Notes: generated by a model not told the origin, from the sequence alone. 24,000 nt of DNA from Planctomycetota bacterium (GCA_022568135.1 JADFFQ010000041.1:1-24000); one strand, 5' to 3'. Positions 352 through 23,823 are shown, counted from the stretch's first letter. Translations and numbers: made by a program.

Positions 352-1119
352 CTATTTCCCAGCAAACTGGGGACCGAGCCCAGCTTCAAGCGCTCTAGTT
401 ACTAGCGTGTCGTGTCCCAAATACAGCACAATCAATCTACCTCTCTTGTAAAAGTGGGGTGTCGCAACCCAATGCACCATTGTTGTTGGGGGGCGGCCGA
501 ACGCAGAACCGTCAGGAGAGATATGTTCCGCCTCAGCATCCGCAGCTGCCACATCCGCGTGCTCAAAGACGTGAACTTCACCTCCATTGACGGTGATTAC
601 CTGGCTCTCAACCGAGAAGAAGGCTTGCGACACTTTACCAAAGGGCTCTACGCTAGCTCCGGCTGAACGCAAATGATCTATTAAGGTCTCGTAATCTATG
701 ACCGCTCCGTCAGGTTTGAGGAAAACTATTACGCCACCTGTTGCTTGCACTGGATAGGATTCTGCGACAGGTCCTGTAAACCATGCCTCCGCGCGATGCC
801 CGATCTGTAGCTCGGTAAATGACGCCGGGATCAGGTCCTGTTTGTGCCGTTTGAAAATCTTGGTTTTGTTGGTGATGCGGACCCGAGCTTTGGCTGATCC
901 CCAGTTTTCTTCTGGATTTTCCTCGATGAGAATTGTACCAATGGTGTTCGTTGCTACATCAGATCCGGAGTGAGTGGAGGCCTGCGGATCACCGGCATCC
1001 GCCAATCTGGCAGGCCGCGCGGTATACACGCGACATCCTTGCTGCCCCAGCCGCCCTGACGCCCGCGCCAGGATGCTCTTCGCTGGCACCGGCCTTGCCA
1101 GACTTAGCACTGGACTCAC
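352..1119 (-). CDS. hypothetical protein with DUF3221-like domain (start uncertain)
   Basis: 255-codon ORF with protein-like composition. The segment ...[24 protein letters not shown] resembles the ESYPxQA motif of DUF3221/YobA-like domains (from memory). The C-terminal half ([23 protein letters not shown]...[11 protein letters not shown]) resembles uncharacterised Chloroflexi/Firmicutes-type proteins. The only upstream start is GTG 1119, which lies in high-GC DNA 57 bp from dnaK. There is no convincing signal peptide or lipobox. Confidence 0.5.
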
Positions 1120-1175
1120 GCGCGGGCCGAGCCGCGCGCGGATTTCCCAACATTTCCATCAGGAAGGTGGACACT

Positions 1176-3086
1176 ATGTCAAAGATCATCGGCATCGACC
1201 TGGGCACAACCAACTCCGTGGTCGCCATCATGGAAGGCGCCCAACCCAAGGTGCTCATCAACTCGACCGGCAATCGGATTACGCCGTCCGTCGTGGGCTT
1301 CACCGACAAGGGCGAGCGGCTCGTCGGCCAACCCGCCAGGCACCAACAGGTCACCAACCCCAAGAACACCGTCTTCTCCATCAAGCGGTTGATGGGCAGG
1401 CGTCACCACGAAGTGCAGGAAGAAGAGAAGCTCGTTCCCTACGAGGTGGTGGGAGCCGCGGACCAGCCGGTGAAGGTGAAGGTCCGCAACAAGCTCTACA
1501 CGCCGCAGGAGGTCTCCGCCATGATCCTGCGCGACCTCAAGAAGACCGCGGAGGATTACCTGGGCGAGAAGATCGACCGGGCCGTCATCACCGTCCCCGC
1601 CTACTTCAACGACTCGCAGCGGACAGCCACCAAGGAGGCAGGCGAGATCGCCGGGCTCACCGTCGAGCGCATTATCAATGAGCCGACCGCCGCCGCCTTG
1701 GCCTACGGCCTGGAGAAGAAGAAAACCGCCAAGATCGCCGTGTTCGACTTCGGCGGCGGCACCTTCGACATCTCGATCCTCGACATCGGCGAGGGTGTGT
1801 TCGAGGTCCTCAGCACCCACGGCGATACCCACCTCGGCGGCGATGACCTCGATCAGCGGATCATCGAATTTGTGGCCGAGGAATTCCGCAAGGCCCAAGG
1901 CATTGACCTGCGCAAAGACGCCATGGCTCTGCAACGGCTCAAGGAAGCCGCCGAGAAAGCCAAGTGCGAGCTCAGCCAGCAGATGGAGACCTCCATCAAC
2001 CTGCCCTTCATCACCGCCGATCAGCAGGGTCCAAAGCATCTGCAACAGACGATCACTCGCGTCAAGTTCGAGTCGTTGTGCGAAGACCTGTTTGATCGCC
2101 TGCGGGGCCCGTGCAGAACCGCAATCGAAGACGCCAAGCTCAAGCCCAGCGACATCGAGGAGGTGGTGATGGTCGGCGGCTCCACCCGCATCCCCAAGGT
2201 GCAGGAAATCGCCAAGGAGATCTTTCAGGCCGAATCATTGGACAAGTCAATCAACCCGGACGAGGTCGTGGCGATCGGGGCCGCGATCCAGGGTGGGGTG
2301 CTCGTCGGGGAGGTCAAGGACGTCCTGCTGCTGGATGTGACCCCCCTGAGCCTGGGCGTGGAAACGCTTGGCGGCGTGCTGACCAGGCTCATCGAGAAAA
2401 ACACCACCATCCCCACCTCCAAGAAGGAGATCTTCTCCACCGCGGCCGACAGCCAGACCTCGGTGACCATTCACGTGCTTCAGGGCGAGCGCGAGTTCGC
2501 CCGGGACAACCGCACACTGGGTCGCTTCGACTTGACCGAGATTCCGCCGTCGCCTCGCGGTCTGCCACAGATCGAAGTGGAGTTCTCCATCGACGCCAAC
2601 GGCATCCTGAACGTATCCGCCACCGACAAGGCCACCTCCAAGAGCCAGTCCATCGAGATCACCGGCTCCACGGGTCTTTCGGAACAGGAGATCGAAAAGA
2701 TGAAGACCGAAGCTCAGGAGCACGCCATCGAGGACAAGGCCCGCCGGGAACTGGTGGACCTCAAGAACCAGGCTGAGCACCTCGTCTATACCACCCGCAA
2801 GTCGCTCGAAGAGCACGGCGAAAAGGTCTCAGCCGAGGCCCGCGGCAGCATCGAATCCGCGATCTCCAACCTCGAAGACAAGATCAAGGAAGATGACAAA
2901 GCTGCGATCGAGGCGGCGCTCAAGCAGCTCAACGACGCCGCGATCGAACTGGGCAAGGCCGTCTACGAGGCCACCTCGTCCACCGTCGGCGCCGGCTCCA
3001 CTGAAGGCGCCCCCGACGCGTCAGTCGAATCGAAACCGGATGAAGATGTCATCGACGCCGAGTACGAGGTCAAGGACGATACGTAA
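1176..3086 (+). CDS. dnaK: molecular chaperone DnaK (Hsp70)
   Basis: ORF 933..3086 trimmed to ATG 1176 ([17 protein letters not shown]). An AGGAAGGTGG SD-like purine run lies at 1161-1170. Hsp70 signatures [16 protein letters not shown] and VGGSTRIP are present, with an acidic C-terminal tail ...[10 protein letters not shown]. Confidence 0.97.
2936..3086 (+). repeat. direct repeat copy A (functional 3' end of dnaK, last 50 codons plus stop)
   Basis: Hand alignment to 4307-4457 gives 151 bp with no indels and 4 mismatches (2996/4367, 2999/4370, 3025/4396, 3047/4418). Confidence 0.9.
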
Positions 3087-3123
3087 CGAGGGGGGATCAA
3101 ACACACGAACGAGCCCAAGCCCC

Positions 3124-3153
3124 AAAGCCCAGGGAGTCCGTTCCCTGGGCTTT
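3124..3153 (+). terminator. stem-loop downstream of dnaK
   Basis: Perfect 12-bp stem AAAGCCCAGGGA / TCCCTGGGCTTT with a 6-nt loop GTCCGT, 38 nt after the dnaK stop. Only a short T-run follows. Confidence 0.5.
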
Positions 3154-3197
3154 GGCTCTAGGATGAGTGCGCCCACACTCGATTAACGGCTCGTCGC

Positions 3198-4193
3198 ATG
3201 CCCAATCCACGCCGCCGACGCAGGTTCTTCCGCGTAGCCTTGCGCCTCATCGCGACCCTTGCGATATTCGTCCCTGGCTGGCTCATCACACTGCGCGCCA
3301 CAAGTCCCTGGCGGGCCGTACGGACTTACACCCTCGACCTCTCTTCGACAGTGCCACAGATCACTGACCATCCGAGGCGACTTCGGGTCGCCGCATACAA
3401 CATTGCGCACGGGCGCGGTTTGGCCGAGAGCAATTGGGATGGTTCGTCCCCAGAGCGTGAGACGCGATTGGAGGAGATCGCATCCTTGCTGCGCGAGGCG
3501 CAACTCGACGTGGTCGTGCTCAACGAGGTCGACTTCAACTGCACCTGGAGCGGCGGCGTCAATCAAGCAGAGCTCATCGCTAAGGAAGCGGGATTCCCGT
3601 ACGTTGCCGAGCAGTGCAGCTACGACACCGGCCTGCCACTCTTCACCGTGCGGTTTGGCAACGCACTGTTGAGTCGATACCCGATCGTTAATGCCGAGCT
3701 CGTGGACTTCCCCACCTACTTGCAGTGGGAGGCCCTGCTCGGCGGCAAGAAGCGCGGACTTCTCTGTACGCTACAACTGAGCGAAGCGGAATCTGTGCGC
3801 GTGCTCGCGGTCCATCTGGAACATCGCGATGAGGCGACGCGGGTTGGATCAGCGCGCATGATCATCGACTTGGCGGAAGAACAAGCGACGCCGCTCATCG
3901 TGGCCGGGGATTTCAACAGCACGCCGCTGGGGTTTCCGTTGGCGCAGATCGATCATGAGGGTCACAATGCGCTCTCACTACTCCTCGGCAGCGGCTTGTT
4001 TGATACTGACCTGAAGAATGCACCCTCCCCGGATGACCTCACATTCCCCTCCGACGAGCCTTACTTCGTGATCGACTGGGTGCTCGCACCGACTGACTGG
4101 CGCACCGTGTCACGCCGCGTTGTCCGCACCGATCTGTCCGACCACCTTCCAGTGATCGTGGAATTGGAGTTGGAATCGACCCGTTCGCGCTAA
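3198..4193 (+). CDS. endonuclease/exonuclease/phosphatase (EEP) family protein, N-terminal membrane anchor
   Basis: 331 aa. An Arg-rich N-terminus is followed by a hydrophobic helix (FFRVALRLIATLAIFVPGWLI). EEP-type motifs are present: VAAYNIAHG, VVVLNEVD, LAVHLEH, VAGDFNSTP, SDHLPV. Confidence 0.85.
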   Translation: MPNPRRRRRFFRVALRLIATLAIFVPGWLITLRATSPWRAVRTYTLDLSSTVPQITDHPRRLRVAAYNIAHGRGLAESNWDGSSPERETRLEEIASLLREAQLDVVVLNEVDFNCTWSGGVNQAELIAKEAGFPYVAEQCSYDTGLPLFTVRFGNALLSRYPIVNAELVDFPTYLQWEALLGGKKRGLLCTLQLSEAESVRVLAVHLEHRDEATRVGSARMIIDLAEEQATPLIVAGDFNSTPLGFPLAQIDHEGHNALSLLLGSGLFDTDLKNAPSPDDLTFPSDEPYFVIDWVLAPTDWRTVSRRVVRTDLSDHLPVIVELELESTRSR

Positions 4194-4208
4194 GAGAGTG
4201 TTTCGGAA

Positions 4209-4232
4209 CCCTCTCCCCTTGAGGGGAGAGGG
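4209..4232 (+). terminator. stem-loop downstream of the EEP gene
   Basis: Perfect 10-bp stem CCCTCTCCCC / GGGGAGAGGG with loop TTGA, 16 nt after the EEP stop. Confidence 0.45.
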
Positions 4233-4306
4233 TCGGTCTCCACAGGCGATCATGCCATAGGCAGATCCGCCGAGGCGGACTCGCCGTGGCGAGGTGAGGG
4301 GTGATC

Positions 4307-4457
4307 CGCCGCGATCGAACTGGGCAAGGCCGTCTACGAGGCCACCTCGTCCACCGTCGGCGCCGGGTCAACTGAAGGCGCCCCCGACGCGTCAGCCGAA
4401 TCGAAACCGGATGAAGACGTCATCGACGCCGAGTACGAGGTCAAGGACGATACGTAA
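4307..4457 (+). pseudogene. orphan duplicate of the dnaK 3' end (direct repeat copy B)
   Basis: 147 of 151 positions match 2936-3086. In the dnaK frame it encodes [49 protein letters not shown]. That frame is closed by TGA at 4302-4304, so it has no start and no upstream dnaK body. Confidence 0.85.
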
Positions 4458-4490
4458 GCGCTGTGCTCGGCAGACCGCATCGCACACACC

Positions 4491-4526
4491 GAAGCCCACG
4501 GGCTCGAGCCCGTGGGCTTCTTCATT
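4491..4526 (+). terminator. palindromic stem-loop after the orphan dnaK end
   Basis: GAAGCCCACGGGC TCGA GCCCGTGGGCTTC is a 13-bp perfect stem (a full 30-nt palindrome), followed by the T-rich TTCATT. Confidence 0.6.
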
Positions 4527-4563
4527 GCCCCGGCGGGCCGCAGTTCACCGACTACATCCTCGT

Positions 4564-6057
4564 ATGATGCCGGACGTGTCCAGCGAGCAGCACGGTTCAC
4601 GTCCGTCGCCGGCCATGGCGACAATCGTAATCCTGGCGATGCTCTCCCTGGCCGCGCTTGTCGTCGCGTTGGCGAGAATGCGGATTGATCGCTCGGCGAC
4701 CATCGAGGCAGGGCAGGCCAACCTTGCGGCGCTTTGGCCGTTTTGGATTGCCTCCGGCTGCGGCTGGGCGTCGTTGACTGCGCTATGGCTGCTGCTTCGC
4801 CGAACCGCGAATCGCTCCGGGCACGCGCGGATTGGACGCTCGGTGCTGCTGATCCTCACCGTCGCCGTGGTGGCTCGGGTGGCGGTGTTGTTCACCCACG
4901 AGCCGGCCCTGAGCGATGATGTGTACCGCTACGTCTTCGACGGCCGAAACGCCGCTGCCGGGATCAACCCCTACCTGAAAGCGCCGGATGAATCCTTCGG
5001 CGTCACCGAGGATGCCGCAGAGGACTGGCCAGGCCAGGCCAATCTGCTGCCGCTGATCAACTTCCCGCAGCTTCACACGATCTATTTGCCGGCCAGCCAG
5101 TGGGTGTTCGCATCAACGGGGCTGGCGATCATGGATGACTGGTCCGATCCGAACTCCAGCGCACGAGTGTTTCGCGCGGTGTTCATTGGGTTCGACCTCG
5201 CGGTGATCATCGGGCTGCTGATCGCGTTGGCCCGTGCCGGCAGATCCCCGTGGTGGGCGGTGCTGTACGCCTGGCACCCTCTGCCGATTGCTGAGTTCGC
5301 CGGCTCCGGACATCTGGACAGCCTCGGCATCGCGCTGCTGGTGGGAGCTCTGCTGGCATACACGAAGGCGCCGCAGAAGATCTGGGAATGGACGGTGATG
5401 CTGGCCGTGGGAACGCTGGTGAAGCCCGTGGTCCTGCCGGTCGCGGCGCTTCTGCTCAAGGGCAGGCCGTGGCCGGCTTGGGCGCGCAGCCTCGCCATCG
5501 GCGCAACCGTGTGCGTGTTCATCGCCGGGCCCCTGTGGCTGACGCACGATGCCCAGCCGCTGAAGAACATGGTCTCCACGGCTGAGTTCTTCACCCTCAA
5601 GTGGGCCCACTTCGGAAGCATCTACGAGCCGATGCTGTGGACGATCGAGAAGGCTCAGCACCAGTGGACCAACGACCAGCAGGAGGTTCTCGCCCGGCGG
5701 CTCTGTATTGCGATGGTCGTGGCCGTGGTGGTGGTCGTCTGGCTGCGGAGCCGCGACGTGTGGGGGGGGTCTCGAATGATTCTCTTCGCCATGGTGCTCT
5801 TGTCGCCAGCCGCCCACCCGTGGTATCTGCTGTGGTCACTGGCCCTAATGCCGATGACCCGCAGCGGGGCGTTGTGGATTGCCTCGCTGACCCTGCCCTG
5901 GGGCTATGTGGTCCTGGGCGACGTGGTGAGTTGGTCGGCATCGCCGTGGGTCATGGTCGCGGCGTATCTGCCGGTGTACGCTGCGCTGGTGTTCGACGCC
6001 GCCAAGGGTTTAGCCGTCGCTCGTAGAGCGACGCGCGGCTCTGCGAGCCGCGGCTGA
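4564..6057 (+). CDS. polytopic membrane protein, GT-C-like glycosyltransferase (DUF2029 / GT87 / PIG-V-like)
   Basis: ORF 4294..6057 trimmed to ATG 4564 (alternative ATG 4615). The upstream part is an out-of-frame read through the dnaK remnant. There are many hydrophobic helices. The loop motif after the first helices, HEPALSDDVYRYVFDGRNAAAGINPY, resembles the SDDxxRYxWDG motif I associate with DUF2029/mannosyltransferase-like families (from memory). Confidence 0.55.
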   Translation: MMPDVSSEQHGSRPSPAMATIVILAMLSLAALVVALARMRIDRSATIEAGQANLAALWPFWIASGCGWASLTALWLLLRRTANRSGHARIGRSVLLILTVAVVARVAVLFTHEPALSDDVYRYVFDGRNAAAGINPYLKAPDESFGVTEDAAEDWPGQANLLPLINFPQLHTIYLPASQWVFASTGLAIMDDWSDPNSSARVFRAVFIGFDLAVIIGLLIALARAGRSPWWAVLYAWHPLPIAEFAGSGHLDSLGIALLVGALLAYTKAPQKIWEWTVMLAVGTLVKPVVLPVAALLLKGRPWPAWARSLAIGATVCVFIAGPLWLTHDAQPLKNMVSTAEFFTLKWAHFGSIYEPMLWTIEKAQHQWTNDQQEVLARRLCIAMVVAVVVVVWLRSRDVWGGSRMILFAMVLLSPAAHPWYLLWSLALMPMTRSGALWIASLTLPWGYVVLGDVVSWSASPWVMVAAYLPVYAALVFDAAKGLAVARRATRGSASRG

Positions 6058-6072
6058 ACGACGAGGATCGCC

Positions 6073-7191
6073 ATGCAGGTTGCACGAGTCATCGAGGTAC
6101 TGGAGTCGATCGCGCCGCTGGAATGCGCGGCCGAGTGGGATAACGTCGGTCTCCTCATCGGTTCGACGAAGTGGCGGGCGAACTCGATCATGCTCACGAT
6201 CGATCTGACCGAAGCGGTGCTGCACGAAGCGATCGAGGCCGGCTCGCGGATGATCGTGTCGTATCACCCGCCGATCTTTGAGCCGCTCACCGCACTGACT
6301 GCCGCCGTGCCCAAGCAACGAATCGCGCTGGAGGCGGTGCGGGCGAAAATCGCGGTGTACTCGCCGCACACCGCCCTCGACGCGGCGCCGGGCGGGATCA
6401 ACGACTGGATCGCATCGGGACTCGGCCACGGCGACGTTCGGCCGCTGCACGTGTATGAATCGCTTCCAGAGACCGAGCAGTGCAAGATCGTCACGTTCTG
6501 CCCGGCCGACGCGGTCGATCGGCTGCGCAACGCCCTGGCCACGGTCGGGGCGGGGCGGATCGGCCGATACGAGCTGTGCTCCTTCGAGATCAAGGGAACG
6601 GGGACGTTCTTCGGCGGCGAGGGAGCCCGCCCGCGGGTGGGGCGCACCGGAGCCCTGCAGCACGTTGATGAGATCCGCCTGGAGATGGTCTGCCCGCAGG
6701 CGTCGCTGGCGCTGGCCGTCACGACGCTTCGGCAATTCCATCCGTACGAGGAGCCGCCGATTGAAATCTATCAACTCCTGCCGCGCCCCCGGCGAGACAC
6801 CGGCCAGGGTCGAAGGGTCGTCCTCGACCGCAAGGTCCCGCTTCGCGCGCTCATCGAGCGTATCAAGCAACGCCTGGGCGTTGATCAGCTTCAAGTCGCC
6901 GCGGCGCACGGCGGGCCGCGCCGTTACGGCACGATCGGGCTGTGCGCGGGAGCGGGTGGATCGTTGCTTGAAGCTGCGGTCAAGCAAGGCTGCCAACTCT
7001 TTCTGACCGGTGAGATGCGCCACCACGACGTGCTGGCCGCGCAAGCCGACGGCTGCACGGTCATCCTCGCCGGCCACACCAACACTGAACGCGGCTACCT
7101 CAAAGTGCTTCGCAAACGGCTGCGGGCAACGCTGCCGGACGCAACCGTGATCATCTCCAAGAAGGACGTCAATCCTCTGCGGGCGATGTAA
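6073..7191 (+). CDS. Nif3-like dinuclear metal center protein (NIF3/YbgI family, long form with inserted domain)
   Basis: 372 aa. GAGGA lies 5 nt before the ATG and 15 nt after the upstream gene. NIF3 motifs are present: EWDNVGLLIG, VSYHPPIF, VYSPHTALD, LTGEMRHHD, AGHTNTERGY. Confidence 0.85.
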   Translation: MQVARVIEVLESIAPLECAAEWDNVGLLIGSTKWRANSIMLTIDLTEAVLHEAIEAGSRMIVSYHPPIFEPLTALTAAVPKQRIALEAVRAKIAVYSPHTALDAAPGGINDWIASGLGHGDVRPLHVYESLPETEQCKIVTFCPADAVDRLRNALATVGAGRIGRYELCSFEIKGTGTFFGGEGARPRVGRTGALQHVDEIRLEMVCPQASLALAVTTLRQFHPYEEPPIEIYQLLPRPRRDTGQGRRVVLDRKVPLRALIERIKQRLGVDQLQVAAAHGGPRRYGTIGLCAGAGGSLLEAAVKQGCQLFLTGEMRHHDVLAAQADGCTVILAGHTNTERGYLKVLRKRLRATLPDATVIISKKDVNPLRAM

Positions 7192-7199
7192 AACGTCGG

Positions 7200-7217
7200 T
7201 TGGGCTCTCAGAGCCAA
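7200..7217. terminator. weak hairpin between convergent genes
   Basis: TTGGGCTC TCA GAGCCAA gives 5 bp, a bulge, then 2 bp. It lies in the 33-bp gap between the NIF3 stop (7191) and the stop of the minus-strand gene (7225). Confidence 0.25.
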
Positions 7218-7224
7218 TCTGCCG

Positions 7225-9054
7225 CTAAGGCTTCTTCGGCTCTTTGTGTTTCTTGAGAATCTCGTCGAGCAGATCGCCCAGCGGGATGCCGGTGTCTTTC
7301 AGGGCGTCGTTGAGCAGCCCGCGGAATCCTGACTCCAACGCCGCCTGGGCCAGATCGAAATCCGGATCAATCTCGGTCTTGAGCTTGCCGAACTCGCCGC
7401 GGGTGACCAGCGGGACAATGACCCTGTCCGCGTAGCCGCGCAGCTCCTTGACGCTCATCGCCAGGGCTTGAAGCGGAATCTCGGTTCTCAAGTCCACGGT
7501 CCGCGTGTTGAGGTCGATTCGGCCGGAATAGACGAGCGTGTACTGATCGATCTTCACCTCGAACCGCTCGTAGGTGATGATTCCATTGCGAATCCTGGCC
7601 ACGATCGGGTCGATCCGGCCGGGAATGGTCCGGGCGTTGGCCGAGTTGAATAACGTCAACAGCGCCAACGTCACCGAGCCGCTGTCAAGCTCGACGGCGC
7701 CGATGGTGATCTCGAGATCGGCGTTGAGGCGACTGACATCACCATCCAGCGGGATGGTCCCATCGCTTATCGTGGCGCGCAGGGGCTGCTCGGTGCTGCG
7801 GATGTCCGCCAGGACGGGGTGAATCTTGTATAACAGGCGATCGCGTAGCGCCGGCGTGATCTCAAGCTCTGCGTGCATTGGTGCAGCGTTGGTGATCCGC
7901 AGAGCGTTGTTGCGACCGTTGACGCGACCTTCGAGCCAGCCGTTGGGCGTGTCAATGCGGGCCTGCAGATTGCCGGTGGTCCGCGAGAATCTGGTGGCTG
8001 TGGCCTGGGCGTCCATCGTCGGTCCCACCGCCGCCACGAGCATCCCCCCCAGCCCGGCGAACGCATCAACCACGCGCGTGGGCACGCCATGGGCGCTGAC
8101 CGTGATATCAAGCCGCGCCAGGTCGGCCGAGACCCCTTGCTGGTTGAGAAGTCCGCCCAGTGTACCGTCCAGCTCGATCAGCTCCGCCTCGGCTGCCCCG
8201 GGCACGATCACCTCGCCGGTGACCGACACCTTGATGCCCTCAGCCAAGCTGTCGCTGGTTGCGAGAACCTTCAACGAGCGCAGGGCCGTTGCCTGATCAT
8301 TGGGCGGCGCCGGCAGATTGCTCAGCTGGATATCGATCCGCCCCGATGCGCGAGGGAGCGTCAAGACGCCGTCGCTGTCGAACAACCGCGTGATTTCGCC
8401 CGACACATCGAGCGTTCCCGCAAGGTCTCCGCCCGTCGCGTTGCTATGAACCTCCAGCGTGACCTGATCTGGGCCGCGGTAGGCCAGTTCGCCGGTGAGG
8501 TTGTCGAATACAAGCGTTCGCTGCGAAGCGGCGTCGCGCAACCGCACCGTCAGGCCGTTGATCCGCAGTGTTGTTGCGGGCAGGCCTTTCAGCGTGATCG
8601 GCTTCTTCTGGTCCGGCCCGCGTCGAGGCTTGTCAGCGGCATCGGAATCACTGCCGACAAACAGATCTCCGAAGCTGGTCGAACCATCCTCGCGCAGCTC
8701 GCCGCTCAAGGTGCCCGACAGGTCGATCTCAACCGCATCCAGACGTCGCGTCAGCAGGCCGAACAGCCCAGCGCTCGCCCCGACATCGAGCCGCACAACC
8801 TCTTCGCCGCCGGCATCGGTGATCGAGAACCCTTCGACAGCCTGCGACCCGAACCACGCCAGCGTGAGCCTGTCAAAGGCAACGGTGCCGTTGATCCGCC
8901 GCTGCAGCGCCCGTTGGATGAGACCGTGGCCCAGCCCCCAACTGACAAGCGTCGGGCCCAGCGCAACGAGCAGCACAAGCACACCCCCCAGGCCGATGAG
9001 AACGGCCACGGCCTTCTTCCGCCGGCGACGTGGTCTGTCTGCGGGCTGTGACAT
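7225..9054 (-). CDS. membrane-anchored AsmA-like / DUF748-like hypothetical protein
   Basis: 609 aa. The N-terminus is RRRRKK followed by a TM helix (AVAVLIGLGGVLVLLVALGPTLV). The rest is a long beta-rich, G/T/L/D-rich body resembling the AsmA/TamB-like family. The overlapping + ORF 7873..9051 is Arg-rich shadow. Confidence 0.6.
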   Translation of the reverse strand: MSQPADRPRRRRKKAVAVLIGLGGVLVLLVALGPTLVSWGLGHGLIQRALQRRINGTVAFDRLTLAWFGSQAVEGFSITDAGGEEVVRLDVGASAGLFGLLTRRLDAVEIDLSGTLSGELREDGSTSFGDLFVGSDSDAADKPRRGPDQKKPITLKGLPATTLRINGLTVRLRDAASQRTLVFDNLTGELAYRGPDQVTLEVHSNATGGDLAGTLDVSGEITRLFDSDGVLTLPRASGRIDIQLSNLPAPPNDQATALRSLKVLATSDSLAEGIKVSVTGEVIVPGAAEAELIELDGTLGGLLNQQGVSADLARLDITVSAHGVPTRVVDAFAGLGGMLVAAVGPTMDAQATATRFSRTTGNLQARIDTPNGWLEGRVNGRNNALRITNAAPMHAELEITPALRDRLLYKIHPVLADIRSTEQPLRATISDGTIPLDGDVSRLNADLEITIGAVELDSGSVTLALLTLFNSANARTIPGRIDPIVARIRNGIITYERFEVKIDQYTLVYSGRIDLNTRTVDLRTEIPLQALAMSVKELRGYADRVIVPLVTRGEFGKLKTEIDPDFDLAQAALESGFRGLLNDALKDTGIPLGDLLDEILKKHKEPKKP

Positions 9055-9160
9055 CGCGCCTCACCAGGCTCACAATGATTCGGCTGGCAATCGCCCGGCC
9101 GAGCGTATCCACATAGTAGTGCGCTTTGCAAACGCCTGGCCGGCTTCGGGATCGCCTTGA

Positions 9161-9186
9161 TAGCCGCGGGTGCATACCCGCGGGCC
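9161..9186 (+). repeat. REP-like GC-rich hairpin, family member
   Basis: TAGCCGCGGGTGCATACCCGCGGGCC has an 8-bp stem CCGCGGGT / ACCCGCGG and loop GCAT. Its architecture matches 18189-18217 (TTAGCCCCGGGTGAATACACCCGGGGCC). It is intergenic, between the AsmA-like and PilZ genes. Confidence 0.55.
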
Positions 9187-9262
9187 GAGATAGCCGGGCG
9201 CAAAGAACCCACTCCCCCGCGACCTTCCGGTCGCCGCTAGGGCCACCATCGGTCGGGCCGAT

Positions 9263-9598
9263 TCACGCAGCTTGTCGCGCAGCGGCCCAGTCGGCGGAGC
9301 TCTTGACGAACTGCACGCCCAAGACCTCCCGATCGTCGGTGATCCAAAGCGAACGAACGATCCGGGCATCGAGCATTTCATTGGCCAGCACAACGGCCTG
9401 GCGGCGTTTCAGCGCGATGCCGAGGAACAACCGGTCGCCTGGTTGAAGATCCCCAGGCCCCTTGACCTCCAGCAATGCGCCGGCGGCGGATAGGTTCCAC
9501 GTGGTCCCGGACAGGTACTTGCCCGTCTTCGCAACGAACAGCTTGCAGGCACGCGCCATCTCAACCCGCTTGTGGGCTCGACGATCCCGTACAACCAT
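9263..9598 (-). CDS. PilZ domain protein (putative c-di-GMP receptor)
   Basis: 111 aa. An RxxxR-type motif lies at the N-terminus (RDRRAHKR) and a D/NxSxxG motif follows (WNLSAAGAL). Confidence 0.75.
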   Translation of the reverse strand: MVVRDRRAHKRVEMARACKLFVAKTGKYLSGTTWNLSAAGALLEVKGPGDLQPGDRLFLGIALKRRQAVVLANEMLDARIVRSLWITDDREVLGVQFVKSSADWAAARQAA

Positions 9599-9772
9599 GT
9601 GTGGACCTCAATGTGGCCGGCGTCGCTGCACAGCGGCTCCAGCCGGGTTATCGGCGATGTGCGACGATGACTTTGGCCCGGTGCGAATATGCACGGCTCC
9701 GCCCCAGGGCCATGGCCGATCTGGGGCTCGCAACCGGCCGATCCGCCCGGCCCTATCCTTTATTATTCTTCC

Positions 9773-10678
9773 ATGCTCGAATCCATCAGCGTCCAAGCGC
9801 CGGCCAAGCTGAACCTCGCCCTGTCGGTCGGCCCGACGGATCGTGACGGGATGCATCCGATTTGCAGTTGGATGGTGACGATCGATCTCTGCGACGAACT
9901 GGTGGTGGACCGGTTGCCGCAAGACCGGCTCTCCCGGTACGCGATCCTCTGGCACGAAGACGCCAAGCGCCCAAGCGATATCGACTGGCCGATCACCGGC
10001 GACCTGGCGGTGCGGGCTCATCTGGCCATGGAGAACCATGTGGGTCGGCGACTCCCGTTGCAATTGAAACTGCAAAAGCGCATTCCCGTGGGCGGAGGAC
10101 TCGGCGGCGGCTCTTCCAACGCGGCCGCTATGCTCCGGGCCGTCAACGAATTGTTCGACCTTTGCGTGTCCCTCGATGACATGCGGCAGATCAGTTGGGG
10201 GCTTGGGTCTGATGTGCCCTTCTTTGTAGCAGGCGGAAGCGCCATCGTCGAAGGGCTCGGCGAGCAGATCGAATCGCAAGAGACGGTGCCGAACCTGAGC
10301 GCCGTGATCGTCTTTCCCGAAGCCTCATGCCCGACCGGACGCGTCTACGACATGTTCGACAAGGTCGGGCCGGGACCGTTGCGCCCAGACGCGGTGCGGG
10401 CGCTGGCCGGCTTGAATGGGCCGTTGCGCCCGGATGCGATCTTCAACGATCTAGCGCCAGCGGCCATACGCGTCGCCCCCACGCTCCAGGAGCATCTGGC
10501 CCAACTGACCGCTCTGGCCGAACGTCCAGCTCATGTGGCCGGAAGCGGCTCGAGTATCTTCGTCCTCTGCGACGACCAGCTCCACGCCGAGGCGCTGGCG
10601 GACGCGGTCGAGCGCAGACTTGCATTGCCCGCCGTCGCGGTGAGGTCGCTTGCGGCCAGAGCCACGTCGGTTCTTTGA
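9773..10678 (+). CDS. ispE: 4-diphosphocytidyl-2-C-methyl-D-erythritol kinase
   Basis: ORF 9689..10678 trimmed to ATG 9773 (MLESISVQAPAKLNLALSV). The GHMP kinase motif PVGGGLGGGSSNAAA is present, and the C-terminus has GSGSSIF. Confidence 0.9.
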   Translation: MLESISVQAPAKLNLALSVGPTDRDGMHPICSWMVTIDLCDELVVDRLPQDRLSRYAILWHEDAKRPSDIDWPITGDLAVRAHLAMENHVGRRLPLQLKLQKRIPVGGGLGGGSSNAAAMLRAVNELFDLCVSLDDMRQISWGLGSDVPFFVAGGSAIVEGLGEQIESQETVPNLSAVIVFPEASCPTGRVYDMFDKVGPGPLRPDAVRALAGLNGPLRPDAIFNDLAPAAIRVAPTLQEHLAQLTALAERPAHVAGSGSSIFVLCDDQLHAEALADAVERRLALPAVAVRSLAARATSVL

Positions 10679-10943
10679 TTGGCCGATCAGGACGCGCGGC
10701 GGCCGGCTCAGCGCGATTCAGGACCCCATAGACGCGTGAGATTTGCCATTCGCTGCGGGCGAAGTTCACCGGCTTGCCGACCTGCAGCCAGTGCAGAGCC
10801 GACGCATGGGCCGCCTTGATCATCACCTCCGACTCATCCTCCGTCCGGTCCGCTTTCTCCAGCAGCGTCCAGGTGAAGTTGAACATCGCTTTACCACATT
10901 GCAGATGCTGCTGAGCGGTCAAGTTCATCGTGGTCTGGGCCAT
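10443..10943 (-). CDS. small helical hypothetical protein, probably truncated; ORF tail is antisense to ispE
   Basis: ATG 10943 is preceded by GGAGGA at 9-nt spacing. The first ~82 aa (…FNFTWTLLEKADRTEDESEVMIKAAHASALHWLQVGKPVNFARSEWQISRVYGVLNRAEPA) are protein-like and match my recollection of a conserved ~140-aa family. From about 10700 the frame becomes R/P-rich junk and overlaps ispE by 236 bp before a stop. Confidence 0.45.
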   Translation of the reverse strand: MAQTTMNLTAQQHLQCGKAMFNFTWTLLEKADRTEDESEVMIKAAHASALHWLQVGKPVNFARSEWQISRVYGVLNRAEPAAARPDRPIKEPTWLWPQATSPRRRAMQVCARPRPPAPRRGAGRRRGRRYSSRFRPHELDVRPERSVGPDAPGAWGRRVWPLALDR

Positions 10944-10980
10944 AGGCAATGATCCTCCGAGCCCACGTTACGATGCCCAG

Positions 10981-12423
10981 ATGAACGAAGAGACAACCTA
11001 TCACATGACGCCGGATCAGTTCCGCCGCCACGGCCGGGCGCTGGTCGATTGGATTGCCCGTTACATGGAGCAGATTGAGCAATACCCGGTGCTTTCGCAG
11101 GTCAAGCCGGGTGAGATTCGCCGCCGCTTGCCGGCTTCGCCGCCACAACAGGGCGAACCGTTCGAGATGATGATGCGCGACCTGGACGAGATCATTCTCC
11201 CGGGGATCACCCACTGGCAGTCGCCAAGCTTCTTCGGGTTCTTTCCCGCCAACGCCTCCGGCCCGTCGATCCTGGGAGAGCTGCTCTCAGCCGGTTTGGG
11301 TGTGCAGGGAATGCTGTGGGCCACCAGCCCGGCGTGCACTGAGCTGGAGACCCATGTGCTCGACTGGCTGGTTGACATGCTGGAGCTGCCGCAGCATTTC
11401 AAATCCACCACAGCCGGCGGAGGGGTGATCCAGGACACCGCCTCCAGCGCGACCCTTTGTGCGCTGCTCACAGCGCGCGAGAGGGCGACGGACTTCACGA
11501 GCAACCACAAGGGAGTCGATCGCCCGTTGATCGCCTACACCTCGAACCAGGCTCACTCCTCCGTCGAGAAGGCGGTCAAGATCGCCGGCCTGGGGCGCGA
11601 GAATCTGCGTTTGATCGAGGTGGATGAGCAGTACGCGATGCGGCCGGACGCTCTGGAGGCGGCGATCAAGAATGACCTGGCCAGCGGCCGAACACCGTGC
11701 TTCGTCTGCGCGACGGTCGGCACGACGTCGTCGAATGCAATCGATCCCCTGCGCCCCATCGGCGAGATATGTCAGCGGCATGGGGTCTGGCTGCACGTCG
11801 ATGCGGCCATGAGCGGCACGGCTGCGATCTGCCCCGAGTTCCGCTTTATCCACGACGGGCTCCAGTTCGCCGACAGCTACTGCTTCAACCCGCATAAGTG
11901 GATGTTCACCAACTTCGACTGCGATTGCTTCTGGGTCGCCGACCGAGCTGCACTCATCAACACGCTCAGTGTTCAGCCTGAGTATTTGAAGAACCCGGCC
12001 GGCGGTTCCGGGGGCGGAGAGGTGTTCGATTATCGCGACTGGCACATTCCGCTCGGCCGGCGGTTCCGGGCGTTGAAACTCTGGTTCGTCATCCGCCACT
12101 ACGGCATCGTTGGCCTGCAACATCACATCCGTGAGCACGTGAAGCTCGCCCAGGAGTTCGCATCGTGGGTCCAAGCGGATGAGCGCTTCGAGCTGGCGGT
12201 CGAGCCACCCTTGAACCTGGTCTGCTTCCGCCACCGCGGCGGGGATGAGGTCAACCAACAGATCATGGATCGCCTCAACTGCTCGGGCAAGCTGTATCTC
12301 ACCCACACCCGGCTCGATGAGAAGCTGACCCTGCGCTTCTGCGTCGGCCAGACACACACCCAGCGCCGCCACGTCCAGGCGGCGTGGGCGTCGATCCACG
12401 AATCAGCTGACGCGATCGCTTGA
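10981..12423 (+). CDS. aromatic-L-amino-acid decarboxylase (group II PLP-dependent decarboxylase)
   Basis: ORF 10930..12423 trimmed to ATG 10981 (alternative ATG 11005). Motifs present: FRRHGRALVDWIARY, ITHWQSPSFFGFFPAN, HVDAA, and the PLP-lysine motif FNPHKWMFTNFDC. Confidence 0.85.
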   Translation: MNEETTYHMTPDQFRRHGRALVDWIARYMEQIEQYPVLSQVKPGEIRRRLPASPPQQGEPFEMMMRDLDEIILPGITHWQSPSFFGFFPANASGPSILGELLSAGLGVQGMLWATSPACTELETHVLDWLVDMLELPQHFKSTTAGGGVIQDTASSATLCALLTARERATDFTSNHKGVDRPLIAYTSNQAHSSVEKAVKIAGLGRENLRLIEVDEQYAMRPDALEAAIKNDLASGRTPCFVCATVGTTSSNAIDPLRPIGEICQRHGVWLHVDAAMSGTAAICPEFRFIHDGLQFADSYCFNPHKWMFTNFDCDCFWVADRAALINTLSVQPEYLKNPAGGSGGGEVFDYRDWHIPLGRRFRALKLWFVIRHYGIVGLQHHIREHVKLAQEFASWVQADERFELAVEPPLNLVCFRHRGGDEVNQQIMDRLNCSGKLYLTHTRLDEKLTLRFCVGQTHTQRRHVQAAWASIHESADAIA

Positions 12424-12439
12424 TGATTCACCACCGAGG

Positions 12440-12532
12440 CACAGAGGACACTGAGAAGATATCAGGTAGGATTCCTACGAACAGGATGCTCTTCTACGTC
12501 TTTGTATTCTCTGTGTTCTCAGTGTCTCTGTG
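12440..12532. repeat. imperfect inverted repeat with a CACAGAG(G)ACACTGAGAA core
   Basis: CACAGAGGACACTGAGAA (12440-12457) pairs with TTCTCAGTGTCTCTGTG (12516-12532), the reverse complement with a 1-nt indel. The spacer is about 58 bp. It lies in the intergenic region between the decarboxylase and the YdeP-like gene. Confidence 0.6.
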
Positions 12533-12563
12533 GTTCATTCTTAAGAACGGGTGAGGACGCACG

Positions 12564-14744
12564 ATGCGACGGGTCAAAGCAGGTGGTGGTTGGCCGGCGA
12601 TCTGGTATGCGCTGGGCAAGGCTCGGCAATCAGGCGGGCTGTGGCGCATGTACAAGGCGCTGCGGTCCAAGAACACTTGCAAAACCTGCGCGCTGGGCAT
12701 GGGCGGGCAGCTCGGCGGAATGGTCAACGAGGCCGGGCGATTCCCGGAGGTCTGCAAGAAGTCGATCCAGGCGATGGCCGCGGACATGCAGGGTCGCATC
12801 CAGCCGCACTTCTTCGATGACTTCAGCCTTGAACAGTTGCGGGGCCTCTCATCACGCGAACTCGAAGCGGCCGGTCGACTCACCGAGCCGCTGTACGCCG
12901 GGCCGCTCGACAATCACTACCGCTGCATCACCTGGGACGATGCGCTGGACCGCATCGCCGCGAAGCTCAAGAAGACGGCGCCGGCGGAAACGTTCTTCTA
13001 CTTCAGCGGCCGGTCGTCGAACGAAGCGGGGTTCTTGCTGCAACTGTTCGCCCGGCTCTACGGCACCAACAACATCAACAACTGCTCGTTCTTCTGCCAC
13101 CAGGCCTCAGGCGTCGGTTTGACGACCGTCACCGGCTCCGGCACCGCGACGGTTGCGCTCGATGACATCCAACGTTGCGACCTGCTGTTCCTGATCGGGG
13201 CGAACCCCGCATCGAACCATCCCCGGCTGATGCGGACGATCGTCGAGCATCGTCGCCGCGGCGGGAAGGTGATCGTCGTCAACCCGCTGCGCGAGATCGG
13301 GCTGGTGCGGTTCAAGGTGCCATCCGACGTTCGCAGCCTGCTGTTGGGCTCGAAGATCGCAGACGTGTACGTTCAGCCGCACATCGGCGGCGACATCGCG
13401 TTCCTTGCAGCGGTCGCAAAGGCCGTGATCGAGCGCGGCGCGGTGGATGAGCAGTTCGTGACCAACCACACCAACGGCTGGGACGCGTTTCGCAGACACA
13501 TCGAATCGCTGGGGTGGGAAGAGCTTGTCAAGCGCTGCGGCGTAGGGCGCGAGACGATCGACCACGTCGCGGAGATCTATGCCGCCTCGCACAACGCAAT
13601 CTTCTGCTGGGCGATGGGGATCACCCATCACGAGCACGGCGTGGGGAACGTGCAGATGATCGCGAACCTGGCGATGACGCGCGGGATGCTCGGCCGGGCC
13701 GGCTGCGGGCTGCTGCCGTTGCGCGGGCACTCCAACGTGCAGGGCATGGGCTCGATGGGTGTGGTGCCGAAGCTCAAGCAAGCGGTCTTCGAGCGGCTGG
13801 AAAGCGCCTTCGGCGTGAAGCTGCCGACCGAAGTCGGGCTCGACACCCTCGGTAGCATTGCACAGGCCGACGAGGGCAAGGTTCGCTTTGCGTCCTGCCT
13901 GGGCGGGAACCTGTACGGGTCGAATCCCGATTCGGCCTTCGCTGCCCGTGCCATGAGCAAGATCGACATGGTGGCGTACATGTCCACGACGCTGAATACC
14001 GGCCATGCGCACGGCCGTGGGCGCGAAACGATCATCCTGCCCGTGCTTGCGCGAGACGAGGAGCCCCAGGCCACCACCCAGGAATCGATGTTCAACTACG
14101 TGCGGCTCAGCGACGGCGGCACCCCGCGCCACGTTGGCCCGCGAAGCGAAGTGCAAGTCATCGCCGACCTCGCTCAGCGCGTGCTCGGTGATTCCACCCC
14201 CATCGACTGGGAATCCATGCGCCGTCACGGCCGGATCCGCGAGGCGATCGCCGAAATCATCCCCGGCTACGAAAAGATCGGCGCGATCGACCAAACCAGG
14301 CAGGAGTTCCAGATCGACGGCCGAACGTTGCACGAGTCGAAGTTTCCCACCGACACCGGCCGGGCGAAGTTCCACGTGGTCGATCTGCCGGCGCTTGCGG
14401 GCACGGACAATGGCGAGCTTCGCCTGATGACCGTGCGCTCCGAAGGTCAGTTCAACACGGTGGTGTACGAGGAGCACGACATCTATCGCGGTCAGGACAG
14501 GCGGGACGTGGTGATGATGCACCCCGATGACATCGAGCGTTTCGGCTTTGAGGTGAATCAGCGCGTGACCGTCCGCAGCGAGACCGGGGCATTGGCGAAT
14601 CTGCTCGTGCGCTCAATCGACATCCGCGCCGGCAACGCGGTGATGTATTATCCCGAGGCCAACGCGATCATCCCCAAGCGGGCCGATCCGCGATCGCGCA
14701 CGCCGGCGTTCAAAAACACGGTGGTGAGGATCGAGCCGGGATAG
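12564..14744 (+). CDS. FdhF/YdeP-family molybdopterin oxidoreductase
   Basis: 726 aa. The N-terminus GGGWPAIWYALGKARQSGG...RSKNTCKTCALGMGGQLGGMVNEAGRFPEVCKKSIQAMAADMQ is characteristic of the YdeP family (from memory). Its length and C-terminal molybdopterin-binding-like region fit. Confidence 0.85.
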   Translation: MRRVKAGGGWPAIWYALGKARQSGGLWRMYKALRSKNTCKTCALGMGGQLGGMVNEAGRFPEVCKKSIQAMAADMQGRIQPHFFDDFSLEQLRGLSSRELEAAGRLTEPLYAGPLDNHYRCITWDDALDRIAAKLKKTAPAETFFYFSGRSSNEAGFLLQLFARLYGTNNINNCSFFCHQASGVGLTTVTGSGTATVALDDIQRCDLLFLIGANPASNHPRLMRTIVEHRRRGGKVIVVNPLREIGLVRFKVPSDVRSLLLGSKIADVYVQPHIGGDIAFLAAVAKAVIERGAVDEQFVTNHTNGWDAFRRHIESLGWEELVKRCGVGRETIDHVAEIYAASHNAIFCWAMGITHHEHGVGNVQMIANLAMTRGMLGRAGCGLLPLRGHSNVQGMGSMGVVPKLKQAVFERLESAFGVKLPTEVGLDTLGSIAQADEGKVRFASCLGGNLYGSNPDSAFAARAMSKIDMVAYMSTTLNTGHAHGRGRETIILPVLARDEEPQATTQESMFNYVRLSDGGTPRHVGPRSEVQVIADLAQRVLGDSTPIDWESMRRHGRIREAIAEIIPGYEKIGAIDQTRQEFQIDGRTLHESKFPTDTGRAKFHVVDLPALAGTDNGELRLMTVRSEGQFNTVVYEEHDIYRGQDRRDVVMMHPDDIERFGFEVNQRVTVRSETGALANLLVRSIDIRAGNAVMYYPEANAIIPKRADPRSRTPAFKNTVVRIEPG

Positions 14745-18742: not shown

Positions 18743-19165
18743 GTGAACATTGGCGGTCCGGCATTCTGGGTTACCTTCGCGCTCTTTGTGTTGAGCCCGT
18801 TCGGCGCCTTCACATTGTCCTGGGCGATCCGGCGGCAATACTTCGCCACCAAACGAAACATTGTGATCTTGGCCGCCTACTACATTGTTTTTGTTGGCGG
18901 ATACCTCCCGACGTTCGTGTTTGGAGAAGGTGCTAATTCAGCTGTAGTTTTGCTTCAAACCGCTGGGTGTCTCTCTATTACCGCCGGACCATTTGTCGCA
19001 CTTTACTTCCTTGTTTCGATGATCTTCTTCACTGAGAGGCCCACCTACCCGCCTTGTCCCGGATGTGGATACGACCTGACCGGAAACACATCCGGTCGAT
19101 GCCCGGAATGTGGCAGGGAACTCCGTCCGCAACACGCCAAGCACCTTGAATCAAAGGATCGCTAG
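18743..19165 (+). CDS. small multi-pass membrane protein with C-terminal Cys4 zinc-ribbon
   Basis: GTG start, 140 aa, 3-4 hydrophobic helices. The C-terminus is CPGCGYDLTGNTSGRCPECG. The local GC is lower (a sampled 60-nt line at 18901 is 45% GC). It is a hypothetical protein. Confidence 0.55.
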   Translation: MNIGGPAFWVTFALFVLSPFGAFTLSWAIRRQYFATKRNIVILAAYYIVFVGGYLPTFVFGEGANSAVVLLQTAGCLSITAGPFVALYFLVSMIFFTERPTYPPCPGCGYDLTGNTSGRCPECGRELRPQHAKHLESKDR

Positions 19166-19800
19166 CACATACCCTTCTTGCTAGTCAATGGTCGCAACAC
19201 CGCCCGCACCGGCGAGGCGTCGAAGCCGACCAACGGCAGGGGTAGGGCGATCAGTTCGTACATCCCCTGCGGCACATCCTTGAGCATCAAGCCTTCCAGA
19301 ATCGCCATGTCGTGGGCAAGAACACGCTGGTGGGCGGGCAGGTCCTTGGATTCGAACAGGTCCACGCTGGGGGTATCGATGCCGATGAGCTTGACGCCTC
19401 GCTCGTGCAGATGATCGACAAGCTCCGGGCTCAGGGCCGCGAAGTCGTCGTTCCATTTCCGGGGGTCGGGAAACGTGCCGGTCGCAAGAAGCAGCCGGTC
19501 AGCTTGAACGTTCGCTGGGACATCTTCCGGTTCAATGCGGGCACCGCGTTTGACATCCAGGTGAATGACCTGGCACGGACCGACATACAACTCCAGGCTT
19601 CGTTGCTCGATTGATGGCGCATCGCGGCCGTAGTGGCTCGGGGCATCGGCATGAGCGCCCAGATGCACGGTCGCGTGCAGGGTGGAGAGCGTAAGGTTGT
19701 CACCGCGCTTCATGTCCAGCAGCACCTCGCGGCTCGGCGGAGTGTCGCCCGGCCAAACCTTCAAGTCCGGCGAAATCGGCGGCGTGATGTCGTAGATCAT
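19162..19800 (-). CDS. kynB: kynurenine formamidase (cyclase family)
   Basis: ORF 19162..19965 trimmed to ATG 19800 (MIYDITPPISPDLKVWPGD). The metal motif VHLGAHADAPSH is present. There is an ATGA 4-nt start/stop overlap with kmo. Confidence 0.85.
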   Translation of the reverse strand: MIYDITPPISPDLKVWPGDTPPSREVLLDMKRGDNLTLSTLHATVHLGAHADAPSHYGRDAPSIEQRSLELYVGPCQVIHLDVKRGARIEPEDVPANVQADRLLLATGTFPDPRKWNDDFAALSPELVDHLHERGVKLIGIDTPSVDLFESKDLPAHQRVLAHDMAILEGLMLKDVPQGMYELIALPLPLVGFDASPVRAVLRPLTSKKGMC

Positions 19801-21146: not shown

Positions 21147-21174
21147 GCAACAAGTCTACCGTCAGCGCAAGCAT

Positions 21175-21201
21175 TTAGCCCCGGGTGATTCACCCGGTGC
21201 C
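21175..21201 (+). repeat. REP-like GC-rich hairpin, family member
   Basis: TTAGCCCCGGGTGATTCACCCGGTGCC shares the 14-mer TTAGCCCCGGGTGA with 18189-18202. It has an imperfect palindrome CCGGGTGA / TCACCCGG. It lies in the 82-bp gap between kynU and kmo. Confidence 0.65.
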
Positions 21202-21228
21202 AAACGAGGTTCGGATCAGAACTACCGA

Positions 21229-22530: not shown

Positions 22531-22557
22531 GCGCCCATCGTAGCGGCAACGACGCAG

Positions 22558-22582
22558 TTAGCCCCCCCCAGGCCGGGAGCTA
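22558..22582 (-). repeat. degenerate REP-like element forming the ACMSD 3' end
   Basis: The minus strand reads TAGCTCCCGGCCTGGGGGGGGCTAA. Compare 23703-23726, ATAGCCCCCGGCTCTGCCGGGGGG. It encodes the last ACMSD codons SSRPGGG plus TAA. Confidence 0.35.
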
Positions 22583-23649: not shown

Positions 23650-23702
23650 GTTCCACAGCGTACCAGATGCATCGGCGCCGGCGCGGTGTTGGCTGCCCTG
23701 CC

Positions 23703-23726
23703 ATAGCCCCCGGCTCTGCCGGGGGG
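23703..23726 (+). repeat. REP-like hairpin, left member of an inverted pair
   Basis: ATAGCCCCCGGCTCTGCCGGGGGG has a 7-bp stem CCCCCGG / CCGGGGG and loop CTCTG. Confidence 0.65.
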
Positions 23727-23760
23727 TTCGTCCGCAACGGGCGTAAATCTTTGACTCGAT

Positions 23761-23784
23761 CCCCGGGCAGAGCCCGGGGCTAAG
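23761..23784 (-). repeat. REP-like hairpin, right member of an inverted pair
   Basis: The minus strand reads CTTAGCCCCGGGCTCTGCCCGGGG. It has a 7-bp stem and the same TTAGCCCCGGG core as 18189 and 21175. It is inverted relative to 23703-23726 with a 34-bp spacer. Confidence 0.65.
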
Positions 23785-23823
23785 GGAGGCGCGGACGCGG
23801 CGGCTCGCTCGCTGACTCAACCC

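Follow-up and report, generated by a model that had tools for sequence, protein, structure and literature searches.

A duplicated dnaK 3' end around an EEP-family gene in a Planctomycetota contig: a probable scar of recombination between two divergent haplotypes

We analyzed a 24,000-nucleotide stretch of DNA from a Planctomycetota bacterium (GCA_022568135.1, JADFFQ010000041.1:1-24000; hereafter the window), in which the last 151 nt of the chaperone gene dnaK recur downstream of a gene for a membrane-anchored EEP-family phosphoesterase, just ahead of a GT87-family glycosyltransferase gene. Comparison with relatives indicates that the dnaK-GT87 interval exists in two old, very different versions, with (EEP+) and without (EEP-) the EEP gene. 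The repeat is probably a scar of recombination between these two haplotypes, of the type termed homology-facilitated illegitimate recombination (HFIR), a reading to which we give a probability of roughly 0.7.

The two haplotypes and their hybrids

The copy at the end of the functional dnaK gene (R1) and the copy downstream of EEP (R2; Table 1) align as a gap-free direct repeat of 151 nt with four substitutions (97% identity), which is far beyond a chance match within 24 kb. Reading from R1 to R2, GGC>GGG, TCC>TCA and GAT>GAC each fall in a third position and are synonymous in the dnaK frame, and GTC>GCC exchanges Val for Ala. On the left the identity begins at the octamer CGCCGCGA; on the right it ends precisely at the TAA stop of dnaK, because the two haplotypes cease to be alignable there. 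Folding places a different strong hairpin after each copy, h1 after R1 and terminator 2, a 13-bp stem followed by TTCTTCATT, after R2. Neither was flagged by a simple promoter/terminator consensus scan, since their stems and tails lie outside the rule of that scan. R2 contains no in-frame start codon and is a silent second dnaK end with no function of its own. The initial annotation had described this geometry, the four substitutions, the separate hairpins, the single EEP gene and the lack of an integrase or transposase, and all of it was reproduced.

The close relatives, at about 91-97% nucleotide identity, belong to a group of uncultured Planctomycetota whose members are about 92-97% identical to one another, and show four arrangements between dnaK and GT87. 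The EEP+ form runs dnaK, h1, EEP, spacer and a GT87 5' end that we call L-type. Contig L003 exemplifies it, with an intact h1, EEP and the spacer with CGCCGCGA, followed by no dnaK copy and instead by a different spacer of about 125 nt and the L-type GT87. The EEP- form, found in L179 and L016, runs dnaK, terminator 2 and a W-type GT87 5' end, and is the empty site predicted by the initial annotation, with dnaK followed directly by the terminator at 4458-4526 and GT87. On the 78-kb contig L179 the full order is T2SSG, DUF4190, three PEP-CTERM-like genes, dnaK, terminator 2, W-type GT87 and NIF3, and the short contig L016 has the same EEP- order. Terminator 2 directly follows the functional dnaK in L179, L016 and L015. 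The window is a hybrid, a mosaic of both parental forms, in which EEP+ sequence extends as far as 4314 and EEP- sequence begins at 4307.

The octamer shared at this join is present on both sides. In the EEP+ spacer CGCCGCGA occurs at the matching point (position 1154 of L003 and 1270 of L017), and it stands 151 nt ahead of the stop in every dnaK allele seen. The states TCA, GCC and GAC of R2 are those of the terminator-2-linked dnaK ends of L015 and L179, and GCC and GAC are shared with L016 too. Among the alleles seen, GGG alone is private to R2; GTC and GAT are private to R1, and TCC is common to R1 and L016. The orphan copy thus derives from a different dnaK allele, one of the sources that the initial annotation had offered for it.

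Further to the right, the W-type GT87 5' end has 48-60% nucleotide identity to the L-type end of L003, L015 and L017, rising to >90% from about 4744, and this sharp boundary at about 4743 is the same in all comparisons. The EEP- block, which extends from the terminator 2 hairpin to GT87 +180, shows 97-98% identity when the window, L014, L016, L178 and L179 are compared; in the neighboring stretch of GT87 the identity is 86-94% (Fisher p = 0.02, 7e-4, 8e-11 and 0.03 against the block). GT87 is dimorphic at a further place as well: besides the W- and L-type codons 1-60, a second block at about 4800-4860 (codons about 80-92) reads TANRSGHARIG or TPVGRSVVGFG. It assorts independently of the first, as in P0364, which is W-type with the second variant.

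Contigs L014 and L178 start inside a copy of the dnaK end and continue into terminator 2. Positions 1-50 of L014 carry I>N, Y>D and a change of the stop from TAA to CAA within a peptide that underlay the dnaK-terminus pattern scan described below and that occurs at the dnaK ends of distant relatives; because the changes hit this peptide, we take the copy to be a decayed orphan. It has 5 changes in 50 nt, compared with 6 in 253 nt of the adjoining block (p=0.02). The L014 orphan looks like the window type, in another lineage.

A hybrid of the opposite polarity is found in L015 and L017. Here the order is dnaK, terminator 2, the GT87 leader and 14 W-type codons, then a join to EEP, the spacer and an L-type GT87, so that an orphan W-type GT87 5' stub lies upstream of EEP (L015 4583-4790; L017 80-190). 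The join uses a 6-bp microhomology, GTCCGT, which is the loop of h1, and only the 3' arm of h1 remains. Since the join truncates h1, the arrangement is secondary, and the two contigs represent an independent, mirror-image hybrid of the same haplotype pair. Positions 1-79 of L017 are unrelated to terminator 2, with a further breakpoint 12 nt before the ATG of the stub, which either a genuine rearrangement or an artefact of the contig end might explain. Each hybrid has a short GC-rich microhomology join (8 bp and 6 bp), and on its far side runs into a gene that the two haplotypes share. A microhomology join paired with an apparently homologous flank, as in both scars, argues for inter-haplotype recombination rather than site-specific integration.

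The structure is also found outside the window record. From position 993 onward the window is 100% identical to ENA contig k141_2163164, and the exact DnaK protein together with the dnaK-EEP-GT87 order occurs on three long contigs. An NCBI metagenome-assembled genome (MAG) has the identical EEP and a W-type GT87 under consecutive accession numbers. The Logan contig L002 (run SRR12886465, possibly not independent of the assembly of the window) matches window 3057-4336 at 100% identity and spans the junction from spacer to R2. It stops 30 nt within each repeat copy, which fits a k=31 graph branch arising from a true repeat. As R1 and R2 differ at 4 positions, they are not a collapsed repeat.

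The ancestral arrangement and the EEP gene

An outgroup clade, comprising L004, L005 and eight short contigs (84% identity for DnaK and 65% for EEP), has EEP immediately after dnaK. Its intervening hairpin, AACCCAGGGA-CTCCCC-TCCCTGGGTT, is homologous to h1, and the EEP leader is homologous too; terminator 2 does not align with the outgroup hairpins beyond a generic stem. Since the series dnaK, h1, EEP leader and EEP is common to L004 and L005, it is ancestral and resident in the clade. GT87 homologues of about 60% identity (L174-L177) have other upstream neighbors, namely a PadR/TPR block or BaxI. Within the close relatives, the conserved membrane-anchored EEP phosphoesterase beside the GT87 glycosyltransferase gene is subject to a presence/absence polymorphism. 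A minus-strand SLBB-PadR-TPR block lies downstream of EEP in the outgroup (L004 3284-6224; L005, there with BaxI) and upstream of GT87-NIF3 in L174 (4042-7766). This distribution suggests that the clade of the window may have lost the block, so that EEP came to lie beside GT87.

Wider searches returned more distant material. A protein search with the C-terminal half of DnaK gave, among the matches listed, only partial fragments of at most 84% identity and no close relative. JGI metagenomes were scanned with a degenerate dnaK-terminus pattern, which yielded 76 loci, all at ≤85% DnaK identity; neither EEP nor GT87 stands directly after dnaK at any of the 76. At one of them (L165) EEP lies 1.2 kb downstream of dnaK, and at another (L128) GT87-NIF3 lies 6 kb away.

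EEP is the only credible gene between R1 and R2 (Pfam PF03372, E=1e-18), and two hairpins follow it. Its AlphaFold model (predicted local distance difference test score, pLDDT, 93) shows an N-terminal helix (residues 4-39) ahead of the EEP fold. Among solved structures the closest in fold are uncharacterised bacterial EEPs, then sphingomyelinases, Tdp2 and nocturnin, all of them generic EEP relatives; a sequence search of the PDB with EEP gave no match. Residues 1-35 (window 3198-3300) contain an Arg-rich PRRRRRFF followed by a hydrophobic helix, and this N-terminus could be a signal anchor or a twin-arginine translocation (Tat)-type signal.

The EEP gene is 93-95% identical in L003, L015 and L017, and at 93-95% the EEP block is about as divergent as the genome background. 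The spacer after EEP is homologous in L003 and L017 except for a 29-nt indel; the corresponding insertion in the window (4245-4273) contributes to the second post-EEP hairpin. The 15 large open reading frames (ORFs) of the window that were scanned contain no integrase or transposase domain, no tRNA was found in the window, and a search for the EEP cassette at other loci, which the initial annotation had proposed for an inserted element, found no second copy. EEP matches PF14529 weakly (E=3e-4, below the Pfam cut-off). A scan of GTDB with an EEP profile gave 80 loci, of which just 2 belong to close relatives (L017 and L018; L018 and L015 are a single contig). The remaining 78, at ≤55% identity, belong to Planctomycetota, Desulfobacterota and Verrucomicrobiota, each from a different genome record, and have a membrane anchor. 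None of the 78 lies beside dnaK or GT87, so the synteny is clade-specific and not general to the EEP family. EEP is an ordinary chromosomal gene.

Table 1 Features of the dnaK-EEP-GT87 region, in window coordinates.
Feature	Position	Strand	Evidence
dnaK, intact, 636 amino acids	1176..3086	+	NCBIfam DnaK equivalog, E=8e-292; identical protein on 3 long contigs
Repeat copy R1: functional last 50 dnaK codons and stop, h1-linked	2936..3086	+	Repeat alignment, allele states
Hairpin h1, 13-bp stem 3123-3135/3142-3154, loop GTCCGT	3123..3154	+	Folding; dnaK terminator of EEP+ haplotype
EEP-family phosphoesterase gene, 331 amino acids, N-terminal membrane-anchor helix	3198..4193	+	PF03372; structure model
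EEP+ haplotype spacer, hairpins 4208-4233 and about 4249-4296	4194..4306	+	Folding; homologous in L003, L017
Probable illegitimate junction, 8-bp microhomology CGCCGCGA	4307..4314	+	Octamer in EEP+ spacer and in dnaK alleles
Repeat copy R2: orphaned 3' end of dnaK, non-coding passenger sequence of EEP- haplotype	4307..4457	+	Repeat alignment; allele states
Terminator 2 (stem 4491-4503/4508-4520 and T-rich tail) and GT87 leader, EEP- haplotype	4458..4563	+	Folding
W-type GT87 5' end, right-hand part of EEP- block	4564..4743	+	Identity step against L-type
GT87/MptA_B-family glycosyltransferase gene	4564..6057 (start 4564; public records 4615)	+	PF09594, PF26314

GC content is flat over the dnaK-EEP-GT87 region, and in composition the EEP cassette equals its neighbors. 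The NIF3 gene of the window lies on the plus strand, as do dnaK, EEP and GT87. Elsewhere, a minus-strand cluster at 19162-23820 encodes cyclase (kynurenine formamidase-like), FAD monooxygenase, kynureninase and amidohydrolase_2 domains and resembles a tryptophan/kynurenine degradation operon. The first 992 nt of the window have about 50% GC, against about 62% elsewhere, and contain a minus-strand ORF from 352 to about 1005-1119 with no family match; a record look-up for ORF 352-1119 found none. This segment is absent from contig L173/L001, which is otherwise 100% identical to window 993-14193, with the junction near 970-993; L015 does not have it either. L179 has three PEP-CTERM-like paralogues between DUF4190 and dnaK in its place. 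This points either to a second variable spot in the spacer ahead of dnaK or to a chimeric window contig at that junction.

Proposed exchange and its alternatives

The observations are the two parental arrangements, the hybrid in the window, the microhomology at its join, the allele to which R2 belongs and the independent mirror-image hybrid; from these we infer a mechanism and a direction. In the proposed event, one homologous crossover in a flanking gene would be combined with one illegitimate join at the 8-bp microhomology CGCCGCGA. An EEP- fragment, consisting of R2, terminator 2 and about 180 nt from the start of GT87, would overwrite the spacer and the GT87 5' end of an EEP+ genome. The product would have a working dnaK end (R1) followed by h1, plus a silent end (R2) followed by terminator 2, and the repeat would measure 151 nt because the fragment happened to begin 151 nt within dnaK. 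Compared with L003 and L017, about 125 nt of spacer and about 180 nt of L-type 5' end have given way to about 430 nt comprising R2, terminator 2 and the W-type 5' end. A single crossover with a fragment circularised at CGCCGCGA would be topologically equivalent, and sequence alone cannot tell it from linear HFIR. R2 also provides 151 nt of homology through which EEP could be deleted later: as the initial annotation had pointed out, recombination between R1 and R2 would regenerate the empty form.

Transfer of an EEP- fragment into an EEP+ genome is the slightly favored direction, because it takes one event from the ancestral state, compared with two for a regain of EEP. The preference is modest, since constraint could mimic the diversity pattern and R1 is the sole h1-linked dnaK end among the sequences compared. 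The EEP- block is more uniform than the adjoining GT87 sequence while the EEP block resembles the background, a pattern which suggests that the EEP- block is a younger allele that is spreading horizontally. Full replacement by this block would remove EEP, as in L179 and L016, and one-sided replacement would give the scar of the window or that of L015/L017.

Taken further, the dnaK-GT87 interval could be a hot spot in which a short EEP-less block (terminator 2 and the first 60 GT87 codons) is sweeping across species-level lineages, an extension that we put forward tentatively and consider rather improbable. EEP would be deleted where both ends of the block recombine homologously, and mirror-image HFIR fossils would arise where one end does not. 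If true, such a sweep would testify directly, at the level of sequence, to the uptake of short DNA fragments and to gene-specific sweeps within a phylum without described natural transformation, and would imply selection on the combination of EEP and the GT87 N-terminus, perhaps via envelope glycolipid chemistry.

Several points weigh against the proposed inter-haplotype recombination. The evidence is all comparative and comes from metagenome assemblies, and the pure EEP+ form is one short contig (L003, 1.5 kb) that does not reach dnaK. The step at about 4743, being shared by all comparisons, may mark an old haplotype boundary and not the crossover of this event, and the low diversity of the EEP- block could come from stronger constraint. 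A literature search found no paper with a title or abstract on competence or natural transformation in Planctomycetes. If the decayed copy of L014 shares the structure of the window by descent, the near-intact R2 needs a separate explanation, for example an independent event.

The opposite history, which keeps the direction of the initial annotation but dispenses with a mobile element, is a possible but distinctly less probable account: an EEP- genome would have regained EEP from an EEP+ relative, R1 and EEP being the incoming DNA and R2 the native dnaK end. This would take a homologous exchange within dnaK upstream of 2936 and an illegitimate joining of the donor spacer, at CGCCGCGA, to the recipient dnaK. 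The junction, the parental forms and the microhomology would be identical to those of the favored reading, the topology is as simple, and the two private substitutions of R1 (GTC and GAT) could mark a foreign allele. However, the regain requires two steps from the ancestral EEP+ state, a loss and then a gain, and the reduced diversity expected of a recently moved piece is seen in the EEP- block, not in the EEP block. We consider a purely local duplication, in which replication slippage or a template switch would have placed a second dnaK end from the same genome downstream of EEP, very unlikely. In its favor, the copies lie 1.37 kb apart on the same strand with microhomology at the left junction. 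Against it, the sequence after R2 is terminator 2 and a W-type GT87 5' end, and the sequence after the local dnaK is h1. Moreover, R2, terminator 2 and GT87 are contiguous and native in L179, L016 and L015, and the copy ends exactly at the stop and has allele states of other lineages.

The initial annotation had read the footprint as that of an element targeting the dnaK 3' end. A small integrative EEP element, inserted site-specifically there and carrying a replacement gene end in the manner of an island, would account for direct repeats around a single-gene insert and for the existence of empty sites, and EEP-fold domains serve as endonucleases in some retroelements, to which the weak PF14529 match might be added. 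This interpretation fared poorly, and we give it hardly any weight. The dnaK-h1-EEP order is ancestral, which makes EEP the older resident; the scanned window ORFs contain no integrase, transposase or reverse transcriptase; EEP shows background divergence and no anomaly of composition. The 78 distant homologues, membrane-anchored and each from a separate genome record, sit at unrelated loci, and the modeled fold comes closest to uncharacterised bacterial EEPs, ahead of sphingomyelinases, Tdp2 and nocturnin. On its left R2 adjoins the resident spacer through an 8-bp microhomology and not through an attachment (att) core, and the mirror-image scar of L015/L017, joined on the opposite side, uses a different site. 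An assembly artefact, with the contig a chimera of co-occurring EEP+ and EEP- strains, is scarcely more credible. The window does come from a metagenome assembly, related strains of both types exist, and positions 1-992 mismatch an otherwise identical contig. Against this, the parental sequences joined at 4307 overlap by 8 bp only, which is too short for assembler chaining and far below any assembly k-mer. The junction recurs at 100% in the SRR12886465 Logan contig, the gene order on three long contigs, and the identical EEP, with a W-type GT87, at consecutive accessions of the NCBI MAG; the two copies also differ at 4 positions.

Comparison with known systems

If the proposed recombination is correct, a footprint like that of a mobile element can arise in the absence of one, since exchange between two divergent versions of a single locus suffices. 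The window would then be a clean natural example of HFIR, with both parental forms and two reciprocal products, in uncultured Planctomycetota, whose mechanisms of gene exchange are essentially unknown. It would add a case of a known process, from a phylum that has been little studied, and not a new kind of genetic system.

One likeness is to genomic islands that insert at the 3' ends of tRNA, tmRNA and other genes and restore the interrupted end, so that the insert lies between direct repeats of the target 3' end and relatives have empty sites. Here, in contrast, neither an integrase nor an att-like core was found, the insert is an ancestral neighbor gene, the cassette is not mobile between loci, and the second scar in relatives lies at a different junction. 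A literature search for integration sites at dnaK ends found none. A direct repeat of a 3' end is not decisive for an island, because inter-haplotype recombination yields the same feature, and the case is a warning for island-finding heuristics.

At Rhs, contact-dependent inhibition (CDI) and type VI secretion system (T6SS) effector loci (Vibrio cholerae), arrays of orphan gene ends and immunity genes have been attributed to an HFIR-like displacement (PMC5361080). There, as in our reading of the window, incoming allele fragments displace the end of the resident locus instead of replacing it, and leave orphan pieces as fossils of exchange. The difference is that the window has no toxin-immunity logic: its orphan, a chaperone gene tail, lacks a start codon and any evident selective value.

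Single crossovers with a circularised (ligated) fragment at lacZ of E. coli gave duplications of 109-950 bp of the homologous locus (PMC3240628). A direct repeat of part of the homologous gene likewise flanks the insert in the window, and its 151 nt fall within the reported range; this route would need a circular intermediate closed at CGCCGCGA.

The closest match is HFIR itself, shown experimentally in Streptococcus pneumoniae, Acinetobacter baylyi, Pseudomonas stutzeri and E. coli (PMC3240628). In that process, homologous exchange at one end of a linear fragment is accompanied by an illegitimate join at the other, usually at 3-10 bp of microhomology, and insertion is coupled with deletion of resident DNA (PMC3240628). 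On our reading the scars described here combine the same elements, namely one probable homologous anchor and one GC-rich microhomology join (8 and 6 bp, compared with 3-10 bp in the literature), foreign DNA inserted beside the anchor with loss of a similar length of resident DNA, and no dedicated recombinase. They differ in being inferred from natural genomes of uncultured Planctomycetota rather than from transformation experiments. The DNA that appears to have been captured is also distinctive, a fragment of an essential neighbor gene from a divergent allele of the same locus, which would give rise to the gene-end duplication, and two mirror-image products of one haplotype pair are found.

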